A stretch of DNA of 64,000 nt from Candidatus Schekmanbacteria bacterium RIFCSPLOWO2_02_FULL_38_14. Lineage in GTDB: Bacteria > Schekmanbacteria > GWA2-38-11. Of this stretch, positions 1,193-63,686 are shown piece by piece (position 1 is the first letter of the stretch; every line of letters begins with the position of its first letter). The notes below the pieces were generated by a model that was not told the DNA's origin, made no database searches, and saw nothing but the letters and a program-made list of their open reading frames with translations. The position numbers were made by a program, and so were the translations under genes. Location: contig MGDH01000022.1 of assembly GCA_001790855.1 (NCBI GenBank), positions 7,116-71,115 of the forward strand, in the 5' to 3' direction.

Positions 1193-2315
1193 TGGACTGC
1201 ACCCTTTGGACTGGAGGCTTAACCGTGTAGTTTTAGGGTGACCCGTCCGAGCAATTGTTTTCTGTTTTTGTCGAGCAATATAGCTTCAAACTCTTCCGGT
1301 GGCAAGTACTGAATTCCTGAATGAACTCGCTTTCTGTTGTAGACCTTTTCTATAAACTCAGGAATGCGTTCCACGACATCCGTAAAAGTCTCATATTCCC
1401 ATAAGCACACCTCCTCGTTTTTTAATGTTTTAAAGAATGACTCAGCATAGGCATTATCATAGGGGTTGCCCTTAGCCAACATGCTGATGAGAATCTAGTT
1501 CCCTGACGTAATCTCTGCAGGCATACTGGACTCCTTGAGCAGAGTGATGGATCAACCCACATCCTTTATCTCCATCCCTCTGAGAAGATTGGGATATATG
1601 TGGAAGGAATGCTCAGAATCGGTTGTCTGGATGAACCGCCTCTTGATATGCCGGAACAGGTCATACTTGTGCATAACCCTCAAAATGCGTTTTCCATTCA
1701 CCCGAAGACCGTAACGAAGCCAAAGCTGGGCTCTCAATGTCCGATACCCCCAACACAAGTAATTTGCCTGTAAAGTCCTCAATCTTATCCCGCAGGTCTG
1801 CATCCACCCGTTCCCTGTCTTTCCGGCATACCTTTGGATTGTAGTAATACGTAGACTCGCTCAGTCCGATCATTTTGCACCCCTCCCTGACTGACCCACA
1901 ATCTCCCCAGTGACAACGCACCCACAGGACCTTCTCATGGATGGATAAGTCTTGTTGAGTTTTTTTAAAAGCTCATTCTGGATGGTCAGCTCTCCAACCT
2001 TCTTCTTGTAACGGTCAAGCTCCTTCTCAAGCTGACGCTCACGGGCAGTGGGACTTGACTGCATCCTGCCTTAGTAAATCTGCTTTTGCCAACAGTTTAT
2101 CAAAGAAGGGGAAATGTCATTCTCTCTCCCAGCCGCTGCCTTGCTGATAGCCCCACTGTCTATCTGGGATACCAGCGACCTCTTGAACTCCTCGCTGAAT
2201 TGACGGTACTTCTTCATCTGTCCGACTCCTTTCTGGAAGATCTTTGCCTCTTCCTCTGTCGAACAAACAACCTAATTCTTAATGCCAAATACTCCAACTA
2301 CAGGGGTGCACTCCA
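1193..2315 (-). mobile_element. Degenerate IS3-family insertion sequence (about 1.1 kb) with imperfect terminal inverted repeats TGGACTGCACCC / GGGTGCACTCCA
   Basis: OrfA- and OrfB-like fragments lie on the minus strand. Left end TGGACTGCACCC (1193..1204) matches the reverse complement of the right end (2304..2315) at 11 of 12 positions. IS3-family ends begin with TG. Confidence 0.65.
1219..2217 (-). pseudogene. IS3-family transposase OrfA/OrfB, disrupted by several frameshifts
   Basis: The HTH N-terminus MKKYRQFSEEFKRSLVSQIDSG is at 2071..2217 (-). The leucine-zipper segment ...RERQLEKELDRYKKKVGELTIQNELLKKL is at 1870..2064. The integrase-core N-terminus ...LSESTYYYNP... and ...WGYRTLRAQLWLRYGLRVNGKRILRVM are at 1552..1921. 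The C-terminus NPYDNAYAESFFKTLKNEEV...RVHSGIQYLPPEEFE is at 1219..1482. The pieces are in different frames, so the gene is inactivated. Confidence 0.7.
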
Positions 2316-56507: not shown

Positions 56508-57641
56508 ATGTATGAACTTACAGAAGAACAGAAGATGCTCAAAGAACTTGCAAGACAGATTGCCGAGGAAGAAATAAAACCTATCAGGGCAGAGCTTGAT
56601 AATACAGGAGAGTTCCCTTATAAAGTAGTAAAGGCTCTTGTTGACGCTGACCTTATGGGTTTGTTTATTCCAACTGAATATGGCGGTTCAGCCCAGGGAA
56701 CTTTTGAGATGTGTCTTGTTATGGAAGAGCTTTCAAAGGCGTGCGGAGGAATAGCCCTTTGCTATGGCGCAACAGCCCTTGGAACTTATCCAATACTTCT
56801 TTTTGGCAGCGAGGAGCAGAAAAAAAAATATCTTCCAAGGATTGTAAAGGGGGAGCTTGCTGCATTTGCTCTTACAGAGGCTGAAGCAGGAAGCGATGCG
56901 GGTGGTGTCAGGCTGAAGGCTGAAGCTGGTGGCGATTATTATGTTCTTAACGGCGTAAAGCAGTGGATAACCAACGGAGGGGTTGCAGAAATCTACACAG
57001 TAATTGCTGCAACCAATAAAGCAAGGGGAAGCCGAGGGCTGTCAGGATTCATAGTTGAAAAGAATACACCCGGCTTTACTTTCGGGAACAAGGCAGACAA
57101 GATGGGCATAAGGGCTTCAATAACAAGCGAGCTTGTTTTTGAGGATTGCCACGTACCAAAGGCTAATATGCTTGGGAAAGAGGGAATGGGTTTTCCTGTT
57201 GCAATAAAAACCCTTGATAAGGCAAGGCCCGGTGTTGCAGCGCAGGCGCTTGGAATTGCGCAGGGAGCCCTTGATGAAGCTGTTGCATATTCAAAGACAA
57301 GGGTTCAGTTTGGGAAAGCAATCTCAACCTTTCAGACAATTCAGGTTATGCTTGCAGATATGGCAACAAAAACTGAGGCTGCAAGGGCGCTTGTTTACTC
57401 AGTGGCAAAATATATTGACAGCGGAGCTTCTGACATTTCAAAAGAATCCGCAATGTGCAAGCTCTATGCCTCTGATGTTGCAATGGAGGTAACAACTGAT
57501 GCTGTGCAGATTCTTGGCGGATACGGATATATGAGGGATTACCCTGTTGAAAAGATGATGCGTGATGCAAAGATAACCCAAATCTATGAAGGCACAAACC
57601 AGATTCAGAGGCTTGTAATTGCGAACAGGCTGCTGAGGTAA
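56508..57641 (+). CDS. Acyl-CoA dehydrogenase (short/medium-chain, butyryl-CoA dehydrogenase-like)
   Basis: MYELTEEQKMLKELARQIAEEEIKPIRAELD...GGSAQGTFE...ALTEAEAGSDAGG...QIYEGTNQIQRLVIA match the full ACAD signature. Length is 377 aa. Confidence 0.85.
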   Translation: MYELTEEQKMLKELARQIAEEEIKPIRAELDNTGEFPYKVVKALVDADLMGLFIPTEYGGSAQGTFEMCLVMEELSKACGGIALCYGATALGTYPILLFGSEEQKKKYLPRIVKGELAAFALTEAEAGSDAGGVRLKAEAGGDYYVLNGVKQWITNGGVAEIYTVIAATNKARGSRGLSGFIVEKNTPGFTFGNKADKMGIRASITSELVFEDCHVPKANMLGKEGMGFPVAIKTLDKARPGVAAQALGIAQGALDEAVAYSKTRVQFGKAISTFQTIQVMLADMATKTEAARALVYSVAKYIDSGASDISKESAMCKLYASDVAMEVTTDAVQILGGYGYMRDYPVEKMMRDAKITQIYEGTNQIQRLVIANRLLR

Positions 57642-58406: not shown

Positions 58407-59687
58407 CTACAGACACTGCATCAGGTTTCGGCTCCAGAGGCAGTCGCCGCAAGGCTCGTCGTTCCCAAAGCAGTCTCCCTCAAACCTGTCTAAGAATCCG
58501 CAGCTTCCATAGGCAGGGCATTCAAGGCAGTGAGGATAAGTAAATTTATCAACACATGCCCTTAGTTCAACAAACTTTTTGGAATTCCAGATTTTTTCTA
58601 AAGATTTGTCATTTATATTCCCAAGACTCAATGGATAAACCTCACGACTTGTGCTGTCAAGATGGAATTTATGGGAGTGCATTAGCCTTGAGCAGGGTTT
58701 TACCTCGCCATCCCAAGAAATAAAAGCAGTTCTGTTCTTAACGAATTTGCATTCACGCTTTACATCTGAGTTTATTGGTGGAAGTGATAGCTCTATATTC
58801 AGCTTATCTGCTATTTTTTTTGTGGCTGCAAAAATATCTCTTTCCTTTGCAAGTGTTTTTTCATCTCTTTCAAAAAGCTTTCTTAAGTTTAGGAATATAT
58901 CGTGGGATGCTGCTTCAGAATATGCGTCATTTATAACTGAATTTAATTTCTGTTCATACTCTTTTGTAACCATTTCTTTTCTGAAGAAGCTGAAGTTATA
59001 GTAATTTTTAAGATTCACTCCCTCTGTCCTTGCGCGTTTCATTGCTTTCTGGAAAATATCAATTGAAGCCTGAGACAGCATTTCAAATGATACCTCATTG
59101 AGCATTTCTTCTGTGTAGGGGAGGAGATGGGAAACTATTATAAACTCTATTTTATTTTCCTTTGCAAAATTTACTGCAAGAGGAAGCTCATCAAGATTGC
59201 GTTTCATTACCACGAATTCAAGTCCGAGTTTAGGCTTGCTTGTTTTTATTTTCTCTTTATACTGATTAATAAAATCTATGCTTTCTTTAATCTTTTTAAA
59301 ATTTCCGCCCCTTCTTATATAGCCATAGGTTTCTGGTTTTATTCCGTCTATTGAGATTACAAGTTTGTCAATTTTGCTGCTTACAATTGCCTGAGCAGTT
59401 TTTTCGCATATAAGCATTGCGTTTGTTGTAAAACCGATTTCACTGTTTTCAGGCAAAAGTTCCTTTGCGATTTTAATTATTTCAAAAAGGCTGGCGTTCA
59501 TCAAAGGTTCGCCGAGTCCGGTAAGATTCAGAAATTTTATTTGAGGCAAAGCAGGGATGAGTTTTTTAAATGTGCTGAGGTCCATATCTCCCTGATTTTC
59601 AGAGAATGTACCTCTCATGCACGTCCTGCAACTGATATTGCAGCGTGAAGATGTTTCAACATAAAGCTGTTTGATATGGTCTGTCAT
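58407..59687 (-). CDS. Radical SAM enzyme with C-terminal SPASM domain (possible Cmo-like cofactor/peptide-modifying maturase)
   Basis: CNISCRTC is a CxxxCxxC motif within LYVETSSRCNISCRTCMRG. The C-terminus is Cys-rich and SPASM-like (C...CPAYGSCGF...CGDCLWSRN). Length is 426 aa. Confidence 0.75.
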   Translation of the reverse strand: MTDHIKQLYVETSSRCNISCRTCMRGTFSENQGDMDLSTFKKLIPALPQIKFLNLTGLGEPLMNASLFEIIKIAKELLPENSEIGFTTNAMLICEKTAQAIVSSKIDKLVISIDGIKPETYGYIRRGGNFKKIKESIDFINQYKEKIKTSKPKLGLEFVVMKRNLDELPLAVNFAKENKIEFIIVSHLLPYTEEMLNEVSFEMLSQASIDIFQKAMKRARTEGVNLKNYYNFSFFRKEMVTKEYEQKLNSVINDAYSEAASHDIFLNLRKLFERDEKTLAKERDIFAATKKIADKLNIELSLPPINSDVKRECKFVKNRTAFISWDGEVKPCSRLMHSHKFHLDSTSREVYPLSLGNINDKSLEKIWNSKKFVELRACVDKFTYPHCLECPAYGSCGFLDRFEGDCFGNDEPCGDCLWSRNLMQCL

Positions 59688-59774
59688 AATGATTAAGAAT
59701 ACTAATTTAATTAAAAAAATCCATGATTTTAATCATAGTTTATTGAAAAAAGTTTAGCAGAAAGCTTATATCCC

Positions 59775-59804
59775 ATAAAATAAAAACGCACCCAAAGGGG
59801 TGCG
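59775..59804 (-). terminator. Rho-independent terminator downstream of the moaD-like gene
   Basis: On the minus strand, hairpin CGCACCC-CTTT-GGGTGCG (7-bp GC-rich stem) is followed by TTTTTATTTTAT. Confidence 0.6.
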
Positions 59805-59843
59805 CAACATTTTGCAATTTAAAATTTCCAATTTTAAATTTAT

Positions 59844-60092
59844 TTAAGATGCTCCTCCTGCAACAGGTGGGAATATGGCTACACGGTCTCCGTCTTTTAA
59901 AAGACAGCTGAGTTCAGCATGGACTCCGTTCACAATAATTATCTTTGTTTCTTTTTCAGGGATTCCAAGCTGGTGAAGCAGCCCCTGTATGGTAAGACCT
60001 TCTTTGGCGGAAATCTTTTTGCCTTCTTTCAAATCAAGTCCGGGCAAATATTTTAATAAAGTAGCATATGTCCTGACTTCAATATCTGCCAT
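59844..60092 (-). CDS. MoaD/ThiS-family ubiquitin-like small protein ending ...VAGGAS (Gly-Gly followed by two extra residues)
   Basis: 82 aa. Beta-grasp-like composition. C-terminus DRVAIFPPVAGGAS has the GG motif of sulfur carriers plus a 2-residue tail. It sits immediately downstream of the AOR gene. Confidence 0.55.
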   Translation of the reverse strand: MADIEVRTYATLLKYLPGLDLKEGKKISAKEGLTIQGLLHQLGIPEKETKIIIVNGVHAELSCLLKDGDRVAIFPPVAGGAS

Positions 60093-60154
60093 TTTAAGCT
60101 TCCTAAATTAATCCCCTATGAACTTACAAACTTGCTTTTTATCTATTTCAAACT

Positions 60155-60201
60155 AAATCCCCCCTACCCCCCTTTGTTAAAGGGGGGATTTGGGGGGATT
60201 T
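60155..60201. repeat. Strong G6/C6 inverted repeat AAATCCCCCC-TA-CCCCCCTT...AAGGGGGG-ATTT-GGGGGGATTT between the AOR gene and the moaD-like gene
   Basis: Read directly. Two C6 runs face two G6 runs about 10 nt away, giving a stem of at least 20 bp with an internal loop. It lies inside the aor-moaD intercistronic spacer. Confidence 0.55.
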
Positions 60202-60230
60202 TAACTTCTCGAAGAAACATATTCTTACCC

Positions 60231-61967
60231 TTAGATATTAGCCCAAACTTTATCAAGCTCTTCAGGTTTAATCTCAAATGTTATATTGTGAGGCGGGCAT
60301 TTTTCATCATCAAAAAATTCCGGCAGACGGTCATCAGCCTTGGTAAAGCCTGCTTTCCTGTTGAACTCAAGCTCTGTCTTAATGACCTGTGTGCCGATTT
60401 TTGGAATATCATCAACTGTAAGTGTTGTGCCGTATTCGGCATTGATCATGTCTATAATCGCCTGCAATCCTTCCGGCAGGTCAAGGCAGGCAATTGCAAC
60501 AAAGAGGCAAAGCCCTGTGCAATCAACTGTTGCTGTTGCAATCTGCATGGCTCTTGACACATCTACCTGCCCCTCCGGTTTTAATGGATTAACATCTCCG
60601 CCTACCTTAAGGATATTCTGCAGTACCGCATATCCTGCAGTATGGTCTCCACCCATTGTGCTGGTTGCATAAGTTACACCGATTCCTTTTACAGTCCTCG
60701 GGTCATATGCGGGTAATCCCTGTCCTTTAACTGCTGCAACTCTTGAAATTCCAAAAACTCTACCTGTTACTGCTGCTCCCTGACCTAAAATTTTTCCAAG
60801 AGGAGTTTTCTTGCCAATTTCCTGAAGCAACTTAATGAAAGAATCTGCATCACCCCATTTTGCAAGCCCTGCTTCTGCGGCAACTGCAAGAGTAACACCT
60901 GACTCTATAGTATCAAGTCCGGTGTCTGAACAAATCCTTATCATCTGGGCAACCTTGTCAAGGTCATCTACTTCAAGATTAGCACCAAGAGACCATACAG
61001 ATTCATATTCCATTGGTGCTGTTATAGCCTTGCCATTTTTGTCAGGATATATATTTGAACATCTGATAACACAACCCGGATGGCATGCATGGACAGCCTT
61101 CCCTTCTCCTCCACGGGCTTTGGCTACTTCTGCTATTTTTTCTCCACTAATGTTGGCTGCTGTTTCAAAACGCCCTCTTCTGAAATTCTTTGTTGGGAAG
61201 CCTCCAGCTTCATTCAATATGTTTACAAGAACTGCTGTGCCGTAATTCGGCAGGGCTTCACCTGTTACGGGATGCTTTAGCAAAACCTGTGAAAATACCT
61301 TTGCAGCATTTTTAAACTTTTCTTCATCTTTTATAGGAACCTTATCTGCACCCTTGTCATCTACGATGATAGCCTTAATTTTTTTTGAACCCATTACTGC
61401 GCCAAGACCACCGCGCCCGGCAAATCTGCCCGGTCCTCCTTCAGGGTCATTTACTGAAATCCCTGCATTGCACATTCTTTCCTCACCGGCAACGCCAATG
61501 CATATTACGCCAACCTTTCCGTATTTGTCCCAGAGCTTTTTATTAAGCTCATATGTTCCAATGCCTGCTAAGTCATTGGCAGGAACGATTTTTACACCGT
61601 CCTTGGTCACTTCCAGCATATAAAATTTATTATCTTTTGGCATCCCTTCAATGATAATGGCTTTCACATTACATTTTGCAAGTTTCTGACTTGCAATACC
61701 GCCTACGTTGGATTCCTTAATTGCTCCGGTCAGAGGGCTTTTCCCGCCAAAAGACATCCTTCCTGAACAGGCAGCAGATGTTCCGCTTAAAAGTCCCGGC
61801 GCCAGAATCAATTTATTGTGAATGCCCAGAGGATGGCAGGTAGCAGGAACTTCATCATTAACTATTGATGACGTTAATCCCCTTCCCCCTGCAGCAGCAT
61901 ATTTAGAAGGACATTTCTCCTCCTTGACCTTCAAATCGGTCATGTTCACCCTATAAATTTTGTCCAT
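60231..61967 (-). CDS. aor: Aldehyde:ferredoxin oxidoreductase (tungsten/molybdopterin AOR family)
   Basis: N-terminal AOR_N domain MDKIYRVNMTDLKV...GGRGL...GKSPLTG. Central ...GPGRFAGRGGLGAVMGSKKIKAIIV.... C-terminal AOR family domain. Length is 578 aa. Confidence 0.85.
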   Translation of the reverse strand: MDKIYRVNMTDLKVKEEKCPSKYAAAGGRGLTSSIVNDEVPATCHPLGIHNKLILAPGLLSGTSAACSGRMSFGGKSPLTGAIKESNVGGIASQKLAKCNVKAIIIEGMPKDNKFYMLEVTKDGVKIVPANDLAGIGTYELNKKLWDKYGKVGVICIGVAGEERMCNAGISVNDPEGGPGRFAGRGGLGAVMGSKKIKAIIVDDKGADKVPIKDEEKFKNAAKVFSQVLLKHPVTGEALPNYGTAVLVNILNEAGGFPTKNFRRGRFETAANISGEKIAEVAKARGGEGKAVHACHPGCVIRCSNIYPDKNGKAITAPMEYESVWSLGANLEVDDLDKVAQMIRICSDTGLDTIESGVTLAVAAEAGLAKWGDADSFIKLLQEIGKKTPLGKILGQGAAVTGRVFGISRVAAVKGQGLPAYDPRTVKGIGVTYATSTMGGDHTAGYAVLQNILKVGGDVNPLKPEGQVDVSRAMQIATATVDCTGLCLFVAIACLDLPEGLQAIIDMINAEYGTTLTVDDIPKIGTQVIKTELEFNRKAGFTKADDRLPEFFDDEKCPPHNITFEIKPEELDKVWANI

Positions 61968-62144: not shown

Positions 62145-63584
62145 TTATTTCAGAGGGAAGTAGAGGACTCTCCAGTGATTTTTCACACCTTCTTTTTTAT
62201 GTTCGAAAAGTCCTTTTAATATTGAAAAGCCTTTTCCGCTTTTATCGCTTTCATACGAGAAAAGAAGCGGTATTTTAATTGTTTTCCAATCATCTTTCTT
62301 CTGGTATTTGTAAAGGTCCCAGAAAAGGGTTGTCTCGGAATTACCCTTTTTGTCCCTGTTGTATCTGCAGAAAGTCCAGAAAGGCGAGAAGTTTTTTTCA
62401 AATTTTTCTATGAACAGTCCCTCCCCTGAAAAAGGTATCAATGACAGGGAAGAAATTTCTGTTCTGTCCTCTTTGTCCCTTCTGTAAGACAGAAAAGGCC
62501 AGAGATTGATTTTTCTTGCGGTTTTCTTTCCGTCTGTCCATGTTTCCTTTCTGTCTGTAAAAAAAGGTACAAGGGTTTTAACCTTTTTTTCATGTCCATC
62601 TGTGGTTATTTTATCAAACCAGAAGAATGGCCAGAGGAAAAAATTGTGTGTTATATCTTCGCTTTTATCGAATCTGAAAAGAGGGAAGAATTGCCTTACC
62701 TGCCTTGTTTCTCCGGAAGTAAAAGAAAAAACAGGCCAGATGATATCGTAGCGAGCATAGTTCCGTTTTTTGTTATTATCATACAGATATAAAGGAAACA
62801 TTACGACTCCAACTTCTCTTTCCTCTGATTTCTCATAACCATAGAATGGAAGCACAATCAGACTCTCTTCTGCAAGTTTATTCCCTTCATAGAATTTCTG
62901 GTTGCTGTAGAATGGCCAGAGATAATATTTTTTAAGGTATTTTCCTTCTGCTTTGTCAAAGCCGTAAAATGGAAAGAATTTAAAACCTGTATGCCCTTCT
63001 CCCTTTGCGTAATGGAATATGGGCCAGAGAATTTCCCATCCTCTGTCATCACCTTTTCTTGTTTCAACATAGAGAGGAAAGCCTATAAATTTTAATTCAT
63101 CCTTATTAAGCCACTTTTTTAAGTTTCCATAAAATGGGAAGAAAAGGTTGTATTTTCCGTTTTCTGCTTCTCCGCCTATATAGAAGGGAAGAAACAGAGT
63201 GGAGCCAATCCTTCTGCCGTCATCCTGTGTTTCATATTTTGAATAATAAAATGGGATAAACCTTCCAAGCACCCCTTTTTCATCTCTCGCATATCTTCCA
63301 AGGGGCCAGAAAAAGTCTATATTTATCTTTTTTTTATCAATATCTTCTTCAACATCAAGGACAGGTCTCAATGCATAATTTAACTTTTCCGGACTGTATT
63401 TCAGTTCAAACAGAGGACCCAAGATTCTTACTTCTGCGGATTGCCTTGAGTCATCAGTTTTTTTATAATACAGGGGGCTTAAGTCTAAATATTCTTCTTC
63501 TGAGAAAGCGGGTAAAGGATTTGAAAGAATCAGTCCATAGAATAGCAGCGCAATGATGGATAAAAAACAACATTTCTTTGTCAT
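62145..63584 (-). CDS. Secreted aromatic-rich repeat protein (about 20 degenerate h-W/F-P-h-F/Y repeats of roughly 22 aa), function unknown
   Basis: Signal peptide MTKKCCFLSIIALLFYGLILS. Periodic units include FFPFYGN, IGFPLYVE, ILWPIFHY, FFPFYGFDK, YLWPFYSNQ, IVLPFYGYE, VMFPLYLYD, IIWPVFSF, FFPLFRFDK, FLWPFFWFDK, LVPFFTDRK and NLWPFLSYRRD. Start is placed at the internal Met (63584). Confidence 0.4.
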   Translation of the reverse strand: MTKKCCFLSIIALLFYGLILSNPLPAFSEEEYLDLSPLYYKKTDDSRQSAEVRILGPLFELKYSPEKLNYALRPVLDVEEDIDKKKINIDFFWPLGRYARDEKGVLGRFIPFYYSKYETQDDGRRIGSTLFLPFYIGGEAENGKYNLFFPFYGNLKKWLNKDELKFIGFPLYVETRKGDDRGWEILWPIFHYAKGEGHTGFKFFPFYGFDKAEGKYLKKYYLWPFYSNQKFYEGNKLAEESLIVLPFYGYEKSEEREVGVVMFPLYLYDNNKKRNYARYDIIWPVFSFTSGETRQVRQFFPLFRFDKSEDITHNFFLWPFFWFDKITTDGHEKKVKTLVPFFTDRKETWTDGKKTARKINLWPFLSYRRDKEDRTEISSLSLIPFSGEGLFIEKFEKNFSPFWTFCRYNRDKKGNSETTLFWDLYKYQKKDDWKTIKIPLLFSYESDKSGKGFSILKGLFEHKKEGVKNHWRVLYFPLK

Positions 63585-63686
63585 AGTATTAAAATGCGGG
63601 GTCAGAAGACCCCACCTGTCTGCATGCAGAATATTCCTCTCATGCGAGCGGGTTATAATGAATTTTAAGCTCAGCACAATAAATTC

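Follow-up and report, generated by a model that had tools for sequence, protein, structure and literature searches.

In Pyrococcus furiosus, the aor gene and its neighbour cmo were reportedly described by Kletzin et al. in 1995, and to our knowledge the function of the cmo-type radical SAM gene beside aor has been unsolved since that description. NCBIfam holds two sister families, TIGR04311 ("putative metalloenzyme maturase") and TIGR04317 ("tungsten cofactor oxidoreductase radical SAM maturase"); going by the latter name, we take TK1064/Cmo to belong to TIGR04317. In Thermococcus kodakarensis, tk1065 (ublC) lies between the AOR gene and the radical SAM gene, and tk1065 is reported to share an operon with tk1064; deletion of ublC roughly halved AOR activity and abolished FOR activity in pyruvate medium, UblC forms protein conjugates, and a role of the radical SAM protein in W-cofactor maturation of AOR was proposed, not shown (PMC11323500). 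The Aromatoleum aromaticum aor operon is described as aorABCDE only, with aorD and aorE as MoaD-like maturation genes, and the term "radical SAM" is absent from the text (PMC6365974). In 2006, Iyer, Burroughs and Aravind reported that MoaD is strictly adjacent to AOR in a scattering of archaea and bacteria, and proposed that this cluster, which often includes MoeB, MoaE, MoeA and a pyridine disulfide oxidoreductase, is mobile and serves W-cofactor synthesis (PMC1779556). A 2024 paper describes tungstopterin cofactor maturation as little studied (PMC10816221).

The stretch of Schekmanbacteria DNA analysed here (the window; 64,000 nucleotides) carries the same three gene types in the same order, AOR, MoaD-like and radical SAM (rSAM), all on the minus strand, together with the following signals:

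60231..61967, minus strand: AOR-family (tungsten-type) aldehyde:ferredoxin oxidoreductase; 578 aa, intact, AFOR_N + AFOR_C
60155..60201, minus strand: strong G/C-rich hairpin in the AOR-MoaD spacer (RNA fold; unique copy in the window)
59844..60092, minus strand: MoaD/ThiS-like beta-grasp protein, putative sulfur carrier (UblC-like); 82 aa, ends ...FPPVAGGAS; Pfam ThiS, Ub-Mut7C
59786..59805, minus strand: Rho-independent terminator behind the MoaD-like gene (terminator scan and RNA fold)
59723..59736, no strand assigned: palindrome ATGATTAAAATCAT, upstream of the rSAM start within an AT-rich block (conserved in relatives)
58407..59687, minus strand: Cmo-like radical SAM/SPASM "metalloenzyme maturase"; 426 aa, TIGR04311, Pfam Radical_SAM + SPASM

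This trio adds a bacterial example of a known, biochemically unsolved module that is already catalogued in protein-family databases, and the locus is probably a compact bacterial module of the aor-ublC-cmo type, comprising the AOR enzyme, a dedicated sulfur carrier and an accessory rSAM maturation factor. The AOR gene, the MoaD-like gene ending in GGAS, the terminator and the rSAM/SPASM gene of the initial annotation were all recovered as listed. Its analogy with Cmo, in keeping with the TIGR04311/TIGR04317 relationship, holds because the gene order recurs across phyla and is published for T. kodakarensis; its further proposal of an uncharacterised new system had to be dropped, as AOR-linked MoaD was described in 2006 (PMC1779556) and the rSAM link is contained in the NCBIfam names. 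Compared with the Thermococcales cluster (tk1066-tk1065-tk1064; P. furiosus aor/cmo), the host is bacterial, the MoaD-like and rSAM genes are split by a terminator, the MoaD-like protein carries GG+AS, and the rSAM is of the longer TIGR04311 type with a helical insert of ~90 residues. The locus likewise differs from that of A. aromaticum, whose AOR has the extra subunits AorA and AorC, and from the clusters of Iyer et al., as no MoeB, MoaE, MoeA or pyridine disulfide oxidoreductase gene was found in the window or the next 8 kb.

The AOR matched both Pfam domains (AFOR_N, 1.4e-61; AFOR_C, 4.2e-74), with P. furiosus AOR (1aor; 6e-80) as its top solved relative. Alignment with 1aor revealed that the active-site Glu and His, both DxxGL(C/D) pterin motifs and the four cluster cysteines are retained, the latter arranged as C295-x3-C299-x3-C303 plus C487, compared to CxxCxxxC in P. 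furiosus. Membership of the AOR family suggests tungsten rather than Mo in the cofactor. Orthologues are widespread at 53–62% identity; among the 57 orthologous AOR loci whose downstream sequence extends for 1 kb or more, 34 carry a MoaD-like gene. The spacer between AOR and the MoaD-like gene (60093-60235, minus strand) folds at −41.4 kcal/mol (z = −2.56), and the two closest relatives, L081 and L082, have GC-rich hairpins at the equivalent site; the hairpin is possibly an attenuator or an RNA-stabilising stem.

The MoaD-like protein has a beta-grasp ThiS/MoaD domain (Pfam ThiS, PF02597, 1.1e-12; Ub-Mut7C, 5e-11) and matched solved MoaD and SAMP2 structures. Because G79-G80 align with the C-terminal GG of these structures, AS is a two-residue extension, and the encoded end is GG-AS instead of the free Gly-Gly of MoaD/ThiS sulfur carriers. 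We examined whether the tail might be an artefact, which is not the case: the stop codon and tail are identical in three independent assemblies (ENA, NCBI and JGI), and relatives end in GGAK or GGAE. Adenylation at Gly80 would be impossible without processing. In this respect the protein resembles the JAMM-processed sulfur carriers of the QbsE/QbsD and CysO/Mec+ systems, which are ThiS/MoaD-type proteins with residues after Gly-Gly. Unlike those systems, however, the locus has no adjacent JAMM/MPN metalloprotease gene: a regular-expression search for HxH...SxxD found no hit in window ORFs of at least 80 aa, and no called gene in the 8 kb beyond the window matched Pfam JAB. The tail is also missing in most orthologues, since ~95% of AOR-linked MoaDs have a plain GG terminus and post-GG residues are rare and variable. 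The JAMM-type tail processing suggested initially was thus not borne out; the GG+AS tail is a minor, sporadic, lineage-specific feature and does not amount to evidence for such a processing system.

The rSAM matched Pfam Radical_SAM (PF04055) and SPASM (PF13186), with a conserved C16-x3-C20-x2-C23 motif and nine conserved C-terminal cysteines (C313, C332, C387, C390, C396, C406, C413, C416 and C425), the CxxxCxxC plus Cys-rich SPASM arrangement of TIGR04311. It scored 405.2 bits against this family (cutoff 400; residues 6-426 on profile positions 3-423), compared to 550–600 bits for the AOR-linked core members, and is by this measure a borderline, divergent member. TIGR04317 was second best at 291.8 bits in two stretches, below its cutoff of 380, and TIGR04317-like sequences do not have the helical insert (about residues 206-295). 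The rSAM does share the Cmo-type context of an adjacent AOR-family gene, which lies 544 nt upstream with the MoaD-like gene alone between them. The AlphaFold model (pLDDT 91.9) has a predicted SPASM-type fold, with the RiPP maturases SuiB, SkfB, CteB and ChlB among the top matches, but scores were just as high for small-molecule and protein-acting enzymes (BlsE, DesII, anSME and MoaA). The predicted fold is generic SPASM and uninformative on substrate. Sequence identity with anSME, SuiB, PqqE and BlsE is only 14–18%, and the insert, as well as an invariant C-terminal CGDC...C motif, sets the rSAM apart from anSME and other SPASM enzymes. A literature search found no experimental paper on any Cmo-type rSAM and none mentioning TIGR04311 or TIGR04317.

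Next, we evaluated how closely the rSAM is linked to AOR. The AOR-MoaD-rSAM order is retained in L081 and L082 and is seen again in Nitrospirota, Desulfobacterota, Myxococcota, Betaproteobacteria and Firmicutes; in Nitrospirota, Syntrophaceae, Geobacteraceae, Sterolibacterium, Anaeromyxobacter and Oscillospiraceae, a MoaD-like gene and then a TIGR04311 rSAM come after AOR orthologues of 53–57% identity. A genuine TIGR04317 member (L127; 404 bits, cutoff 380) takes this place behind an AOR of that orthologue group. In a scan of rSAM-family loci, AOR was present in 11 of 80, and 18 of 80 were in ArsR/ArsP_1/Thioredoxin_3/ACR3/ArsC operons, none of them with AOR. Where at least 3 kb of upstream sequence was available, 7 of 57 rSAM loci had AOR, compared to a rough chance expectation of 2% (p about 1e-4); conversely, a window-type rSAM was found in 5 of the 57 orthologous AOR loci defined above. 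No AOR lies within 8 kb in the nearest genome relative (L001, 41% identity) or near any of five sampled relatives of the TIGR04317-type rSAM; two of these five are ars-linked, and the "tungsten cofactor ... maturase" name is given to two by NCBI and to one by JGI. MoaD accompanies AOR, not rSAM, as none of the AOR-less rSAM-family loci has a MoaD-like gene. In a rough neighbour-joining distance tree, the deep branches of which we did not rely on, AOR-linked and ars-linked rSAMs fell largely into separate clades, and therefore may be functionally diverged subfamilies. The co-occurrence proposed for checking is thus real, with the order kept in distant phyla, but it is partial and far from obligate. 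The family names imply a function that the contexts of many members do not fit, and our literature search found no papers linking SPASM rSAMs to ars operons.

In Dehalococcoidia, an acyl-CoA dehydrogenase (ACAD)-like gene adjoins the rSAM relatives. The window likewise has an ACAD gene (56508-57641), of the ordinary AcrC/butyryl-CoA-DH type and convergent to the rSAM gene. We judged a link between this gene and the rSAM to be coincidental; the two ACADs are 29% identical.

The rSAM gene stands in a unit of its own. The terminator (59805-59786, minus strand) has an 8-bp stem with six G-C pairs, followed by UUUUUAUUUU, and its region folds at −20.6 kcal/mol (z = −2.8); we counted this strong division between the MoaD-like and rSAM genes against a tie of the rSAM to AOR maturation. 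The palindrome occurs at a single site within the window and is kept in L081 and L082 despite unequal spacer lengths, making it a candidate promoter or operator. The 156-nt gap between the two genes contains no precursor-like ORF, in line with the initial annotation: its only four ORFs of at least 20 aa were rejected as precursor peptides, having non-ATG starts and lengths of 20–28 aa and, in three of four cases, overlapping the terminator.

Assembled into a working model, the AOR would be the working enzyme, binding a tungsto-bis-pyranopterin cofactor and one [4Fe-4S] cluster, and the MoaD-like protein would be its dedicated sulfur carrier. In the window lineage, the two extra C-terminal residues would first be lost; an E1 (MoeB/ThiF) whose gene lies elsewhere would then activate the Gly-Gly end, after which thiocarboxylate sulfur would pass to the pterin dithiolene. 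The rSAM/SPASM protein, as an accessory and separately transcribed maturation factor, may act on AOR or its pterin cofactor by means of a 5'-deoxyadenosyl radical derived from SAM and with the aid of two auxiliary Fe-S clusters.

Several other readings of the accessory proteins were weighed against this model. That the rSAM is a MoaA paralogue making cyclic pyranopterin monophosphate for the tungsten cofactor is extremely improbable: MoaA models scored 59–69 bits against cutoffs of 231–325 (TIGR02666, 69 bits; cutoff 284), the Foldseek alignment to MoaA spans only about 215 N-terminal columns, and the C-terminal half is a nine-Cys SPASM domain with the ~90-residue insert and not the GTP-binding domain of MoaA. 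A peptide (RiPP) maturase, or an enzyme modifying the MoaD-like protein itself, could be read from the SPASM domain, the RiPP maturases among the top fold matches and the small protein gene immediately upstream of the rSAM. We nonetheless consider this very unlikely, and the initial annotation was right to disfavour it. MoaD is the sole conserved small ORF; the rSAM has no N-terminal RRE-type domain because its core begins at residue 8; the MoaD-like protein has a single cysteine (C63), and it is not retained in L081 and L082; and neither the fold scores nor the AOR-less rSAM loci favour such a role. The MoaD-like protein might, in turn, be mainly a ubiquitin-like modifier or a chaperone-like AOR partner, with the tail a pro-sequence cut before conjugation. 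The protein conjugates of T. kodakarensis UblC (TK1065; PMC11323500), the Ub-Mut7C match and the fixed tail length of two residues, ending in S, K or E as would fit a cleaved or unconstrained pro-peptide, are consistent with this idea. Nevertheless, the free GG end of most AOR-linked orthologues, as in classical MoaD, the ThiF/MoeB-like E1 that often follows them (14 loci) and the absence of E2, JAB and E1 genes from the window and the next 8 kb make it quite improbable.

A broader challenge to the preferred reading of an AOR maturation module is that the Cmo-like rSAM is not a tungsten-cofactor maturase and has a broader or other role, such as metalloid or thiol chemistry, with a loose or conditional tie to AOR. 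Family loci lie more often in ars-type operons than beside AOR, P0161 and P0162 are likewise in ars contexts, and the window rSAM is a terminator-isolated unit with its own conserved upstream palindrome. Moreover, it is absent from most orthologous AOR loci and diverges much faster than its neighbours: within the window clade, the rSAM is 62% identical to its relatives, compared to 90–93% for AOR and MoaD. On the other hand, the largely separate AOR-linked and ars-linked clades, and a gene order and orientation that persist behind AOR-MoaD across at least five bacterial phyla as well as Thermococcales, hardly explicable without a functional tie, lead us to regard this role as rather unlikely. 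It is unlikely, too, that TIGR04311 and TIGR04317 together perform another radical reaction, useful both beside AOR and in arsenic-resistance operons, instead of being dedicated tungsten-cofactor maturases; a dithiol/dithiolene or metalloid-bound target is one possibility for such chemistry. If this were true, the database name would misdescribe much of the family, and the separately regulated, fast-evolving copy in the window would protect or repair AOR conditionally instead of taking part in biosynthesis.

As a mesophilic bacterial example with three genes only, the locus could suit co-expression tests, although by itself it brings the cmo question no nearer to an answer than the archaeal clusters. 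Of more use is the comparison across loci: the family has a partial link to AOR and a second recurrent context in arsenic-resistance operons, and the name "tungsten cofactor oxidoreductase radical SAM maturase" is given to proteins without AOR nearby.

The reanalysis confirmed the gene order that the initial annotation had described at 58407-61967, namely an aldehyde:ferredoxin oxidoreductase (AOR) gene, a MoaD-like gene whose product ends in Gly-Gly plus Ala-Ser, a terminator and a radical SAM (rSAM)/SPASM gene.

60231-61967, minus strand: AOR, 578 aa, with AFOR_N (1.4e-61) and AFOR_C (4.2e-74) domains
60155-60201: strong hairpin between the AOR and MoaD-like genes
59844-60092, minus strand: MoaD/ThiS-like gene, 82 aa, beta-grasp (PF02597, 1.1e-12)
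59805-59786, minus strand: terminator after the MoaD-like gene, 8 bp with 6 G-C pairs and a U-run
58407-59687, minus strand: rSAM/SPASM gene, 426 aa, with CxxxCxxC and a nine-cysteine SPASM domain

The best solved relative of the AOR is that of Pyrococcus furiosus (1aor, 6e-80), and in the alignment its catalytic residues (Glu and His), the two DxxGL(C/D) pterin motifs and all four cluster cysteines are kept. Cluster cysteines 1-3 are spaced C-x3-C-x3-C instead of the C-x2-C-x3-C of the P. furiosus enzyme, as the group to which the window AOR belongs lacks the first Cys and uses a later one; the motif (residues 295-303) is invariant in eight orthologues. Immediately upstream, a gene at 62145-63677 (minus strand) that comes after MlaE/ABC/MlaD genes encodes a 510-aa protein with a repetitive 'FPFY/LWPF' pattern and no match in Pfam or NCBIfam. 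The left end of the window holds transposase-like ORF fragments (1219-1921, minus strand), of which the ORF 'NPYDNAYAESFFKTLKNEEV' was judged by eye to be integrase-core-like, and an IstB_IS21-like gene (L168:5716-6456) is found within the Mla operon just past the right end.

In alignments with the solved MoaD and SAMP2 structures, G79-G80 of the MoaD-like protein fall on the terminal Gly-Gly, so that Ala-Ser is a genuine two-residue extension, and the stop codon is the same in three independent assemblies. The residues that the initial annotation noticed after Gly-Gly are thus real, yet the tail is sporadic and variable: the C-termini of close relatives read GGAK and GGAE, the only other AOR-linked MoaD-like proteins with tails are those at L060 (+Q) and L033 (+STL) and one metagenome ORF (+M), and approximately 43 others end in plain GG. 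A carrier role would require processing of the tail, which we only infer. JAMM-type processing, proposed on the basis of this tail, found no support in the neighborhood, as the window ORFs contain no JAMM motif and neither the window nor the 8 kb past its right end contains a JAB, E1 or MoaE gene. MoaD genes adjacent to AOR are themselves not new, having been described as a mobile tungsten-cofactor cluster in 2006 (PMC1779556) and again for archaea (PMC2948915). In Thermococcus kodakarensis, where the MoaD-family gene ublC (TK1065) sits between the genes for AOR and a radical SAM enzyme, its deletion lowered AOR activity to ~54% and abolished FOR activity (pyruvate medium; PMC11323500). A second type of Ubl-like ORF, of ~95 aa and without a terminal GG ('GDRLGIFP.DMALLY...'), adjoins orthologous AORs at L088, L093, L095, L115, L125, L133, L141, L147 and other loci, sometimes together with a GG-ended MoaD, and is reminiscent of the MoaD-like gene pair aorD/aorE in A. 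aromaticum (PMC6365974).

The hairpin between the AOR and MoaD-like genes consists of C6/G6 runs (60132-60215) and occurs once in the window; its opposite strand reads '...PPYPPLLKGGFGGIL...' inside a probably spurious ORF of 141 aa. An AT-rich block containing the palindrome ATGATT(A/T)AAATCAT (59723-59736) lies upstream of the rSAM gene and is kept in the two closest relatives despite unequal spacer lengths. Taken with the terminator, these signals suggest that the three genes form partly or fully separate transcription units.

We next considered the identity of the rSAM protein. Along its whole length it matches TIGR04311 ("radical SAM/SPASM family putative metalloenzyme maturase") with 405 bits (curated cutoff 400 bits), followed by the sister family TIGR04317 ("tungsten cofactor oxidoreductase radical SAM maturase") with 292 bits, below the cutoff of 380 bits; scores for MoaA, NirJ, PqqE and similar models fall far under their cutoffs. 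The NCBI annotation (P0001, 403 aa) begins at Met24, which would remove the CxxxCxxC motif (59618-59687 concerned), and the 426-aa start agrees with the family profile and with the ENA and JGI gene calls. An AlphaFold model (pLDDT 91.9) comprises an rSAM core, a ~90-residue helical insert and a SPASM domain, and this predicted fold, being generic for SPASM proteins, gives no clue to the substrate. Unusually for radical SAM enzymes, some TIGR04317-like proteins have a SpoVT/AbrB-type domain (PF04014) at the N-terminus (P0049, P0054, P0132 and P0141, and the N-termini of P0018, P0022 and P0026 in a 19-sequence alignment, A1).

Scanning one genome per species for the rSAM family yielded 80 loci, 11 of which have an AOR within 4 kb, and L049 has one just downstream. 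Hosts include Nitrospirota, Syntrophaceae, Geobacteraceae, Sterolibacterium, Anaeromyxobacter and Oscillospiraceae, and the AOR-linked rSAMs are core family members (550–600 bits on TIGR04311). Across the full length, seven of the AORs share 53–57% identity with the window AOR, usually with a MoaD-like gene between AOR and rSAM on the same strand; identity is up to 61% for fragments, and is 36% and 31% at L022 and L064. Among the 57 loci whose upstream sequence is long enough, seven carry an AOR, giving p ~1e-4 against a chance expectation of 2%, which is our own rough estimate. The reverse scan covered 80 metagenome loci with AOR orthologues (55–62% identity), 57 of them with at least 1 kb downstream. 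The MoaD-like gene is present at 34/57, whereas an rSAM of either family (at least 100 bits) is found at only 5/57, most orthologous AORs having no such neighbor, and a ThiF/MoeB-like E1 at 14/80. Linkage of rSAM and AOR genes, which the initial annotation proposed to test, exists but is only partial. Among the five, L127 belongs to TIGR04317 proper (404 bits), indicating that the two sister families occur at one and the same position after this group of AORs.

A ~200-aa protein, c18, has no Pfam match and is absent from the window, and occurs at 25/57 orthologous AOR loci; in many genomes it directly follows the AOR, ahead of MoaD, and it contains a beta-grasp-like stretch ('NGKPVDD...DG..LALS.AMPGLVGAT').

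L024:5129-5776, L028:1157-1687, L033:2255-2848, L060:6147-6749, L039:9312-9911 and 25 further metagenome loci: c18

In L081 and L082, the groundwater contigs with the two closest rSAM relatives, the order AOR-MoaD-rSAM is kept; AOR and MoaD are 90–93% identical to their window counterparts, but the rSAM only 62%. The rSAM frame in these contigs (L081:1207-2153, L082:1414-2281) stops at residue 280, and past residue 259 the DNA corresponds, in reverse complement, to sequence encoding residues ~246-302 of a copy that differs slightly. Two independent assemblies have the same junction, which is explained by a genuine rearrangement or pseudogene or else by a chimera common to both assemblies.

The main alternative is a role of the rSAM family that is not confined to tungsten cofactors, as suggested by its relatives in ars operons. 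At 18/80 rSAM loci, all of them lacking an AOR, two or more of ArsR, ArsP_1 permease, Thioredoxin_3, ACR3 and LMW-PTP ArsC lie within 4 kb (L011, L018, L032, L041-L043, L047, L051-L057, L068 and L070-L072; also of this type are L165 and L175), and a PF04060 Fe-S protein often adjoins the ars-linked rSAM. Five TIGR04317-type relatives sampled on long contigs likewise have no AOR nearby, two being ars-linked and one lying beside PF04060 Fe-S proteins; the 'tungsten cofactor ... maturase' name is given to two by NCBI and to one by JGI, and two are nameless. The ars-linked P0161 (L165) bears the full NCBI name 'tungsten cofactor oxidoreductase radical SAM maturase', and P0162 (L175) is nameless at source. 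In a rough neighbor-joining tree, AOR-linked and ars-linked rSAMs fall mostly into separate clades, with the window rSAM on a deep branch with that of L001, which lacks an AOR. Our literature search returned nothing on either TIGR04311 or TIGR04317, nor on SPASM rSAMs in ars operons.

Set against this alternative, we lean moderately toward a joint reading, with far less confidence in its rSAM step, in which the AOR would be the enzyme, the MoaD-like protein its dedicated sulfur carrier acting after loss of the tail, and the rSAM a separately expressed accessory maturation factor. The initial comparison with Cmo, encoded by the radical-SAM-like 'cofactor modifying' gene beside aor in P. furiosus, was right in kind, although such a system is already known and curated: the trio adds a new and divergent bacterial example of that module.
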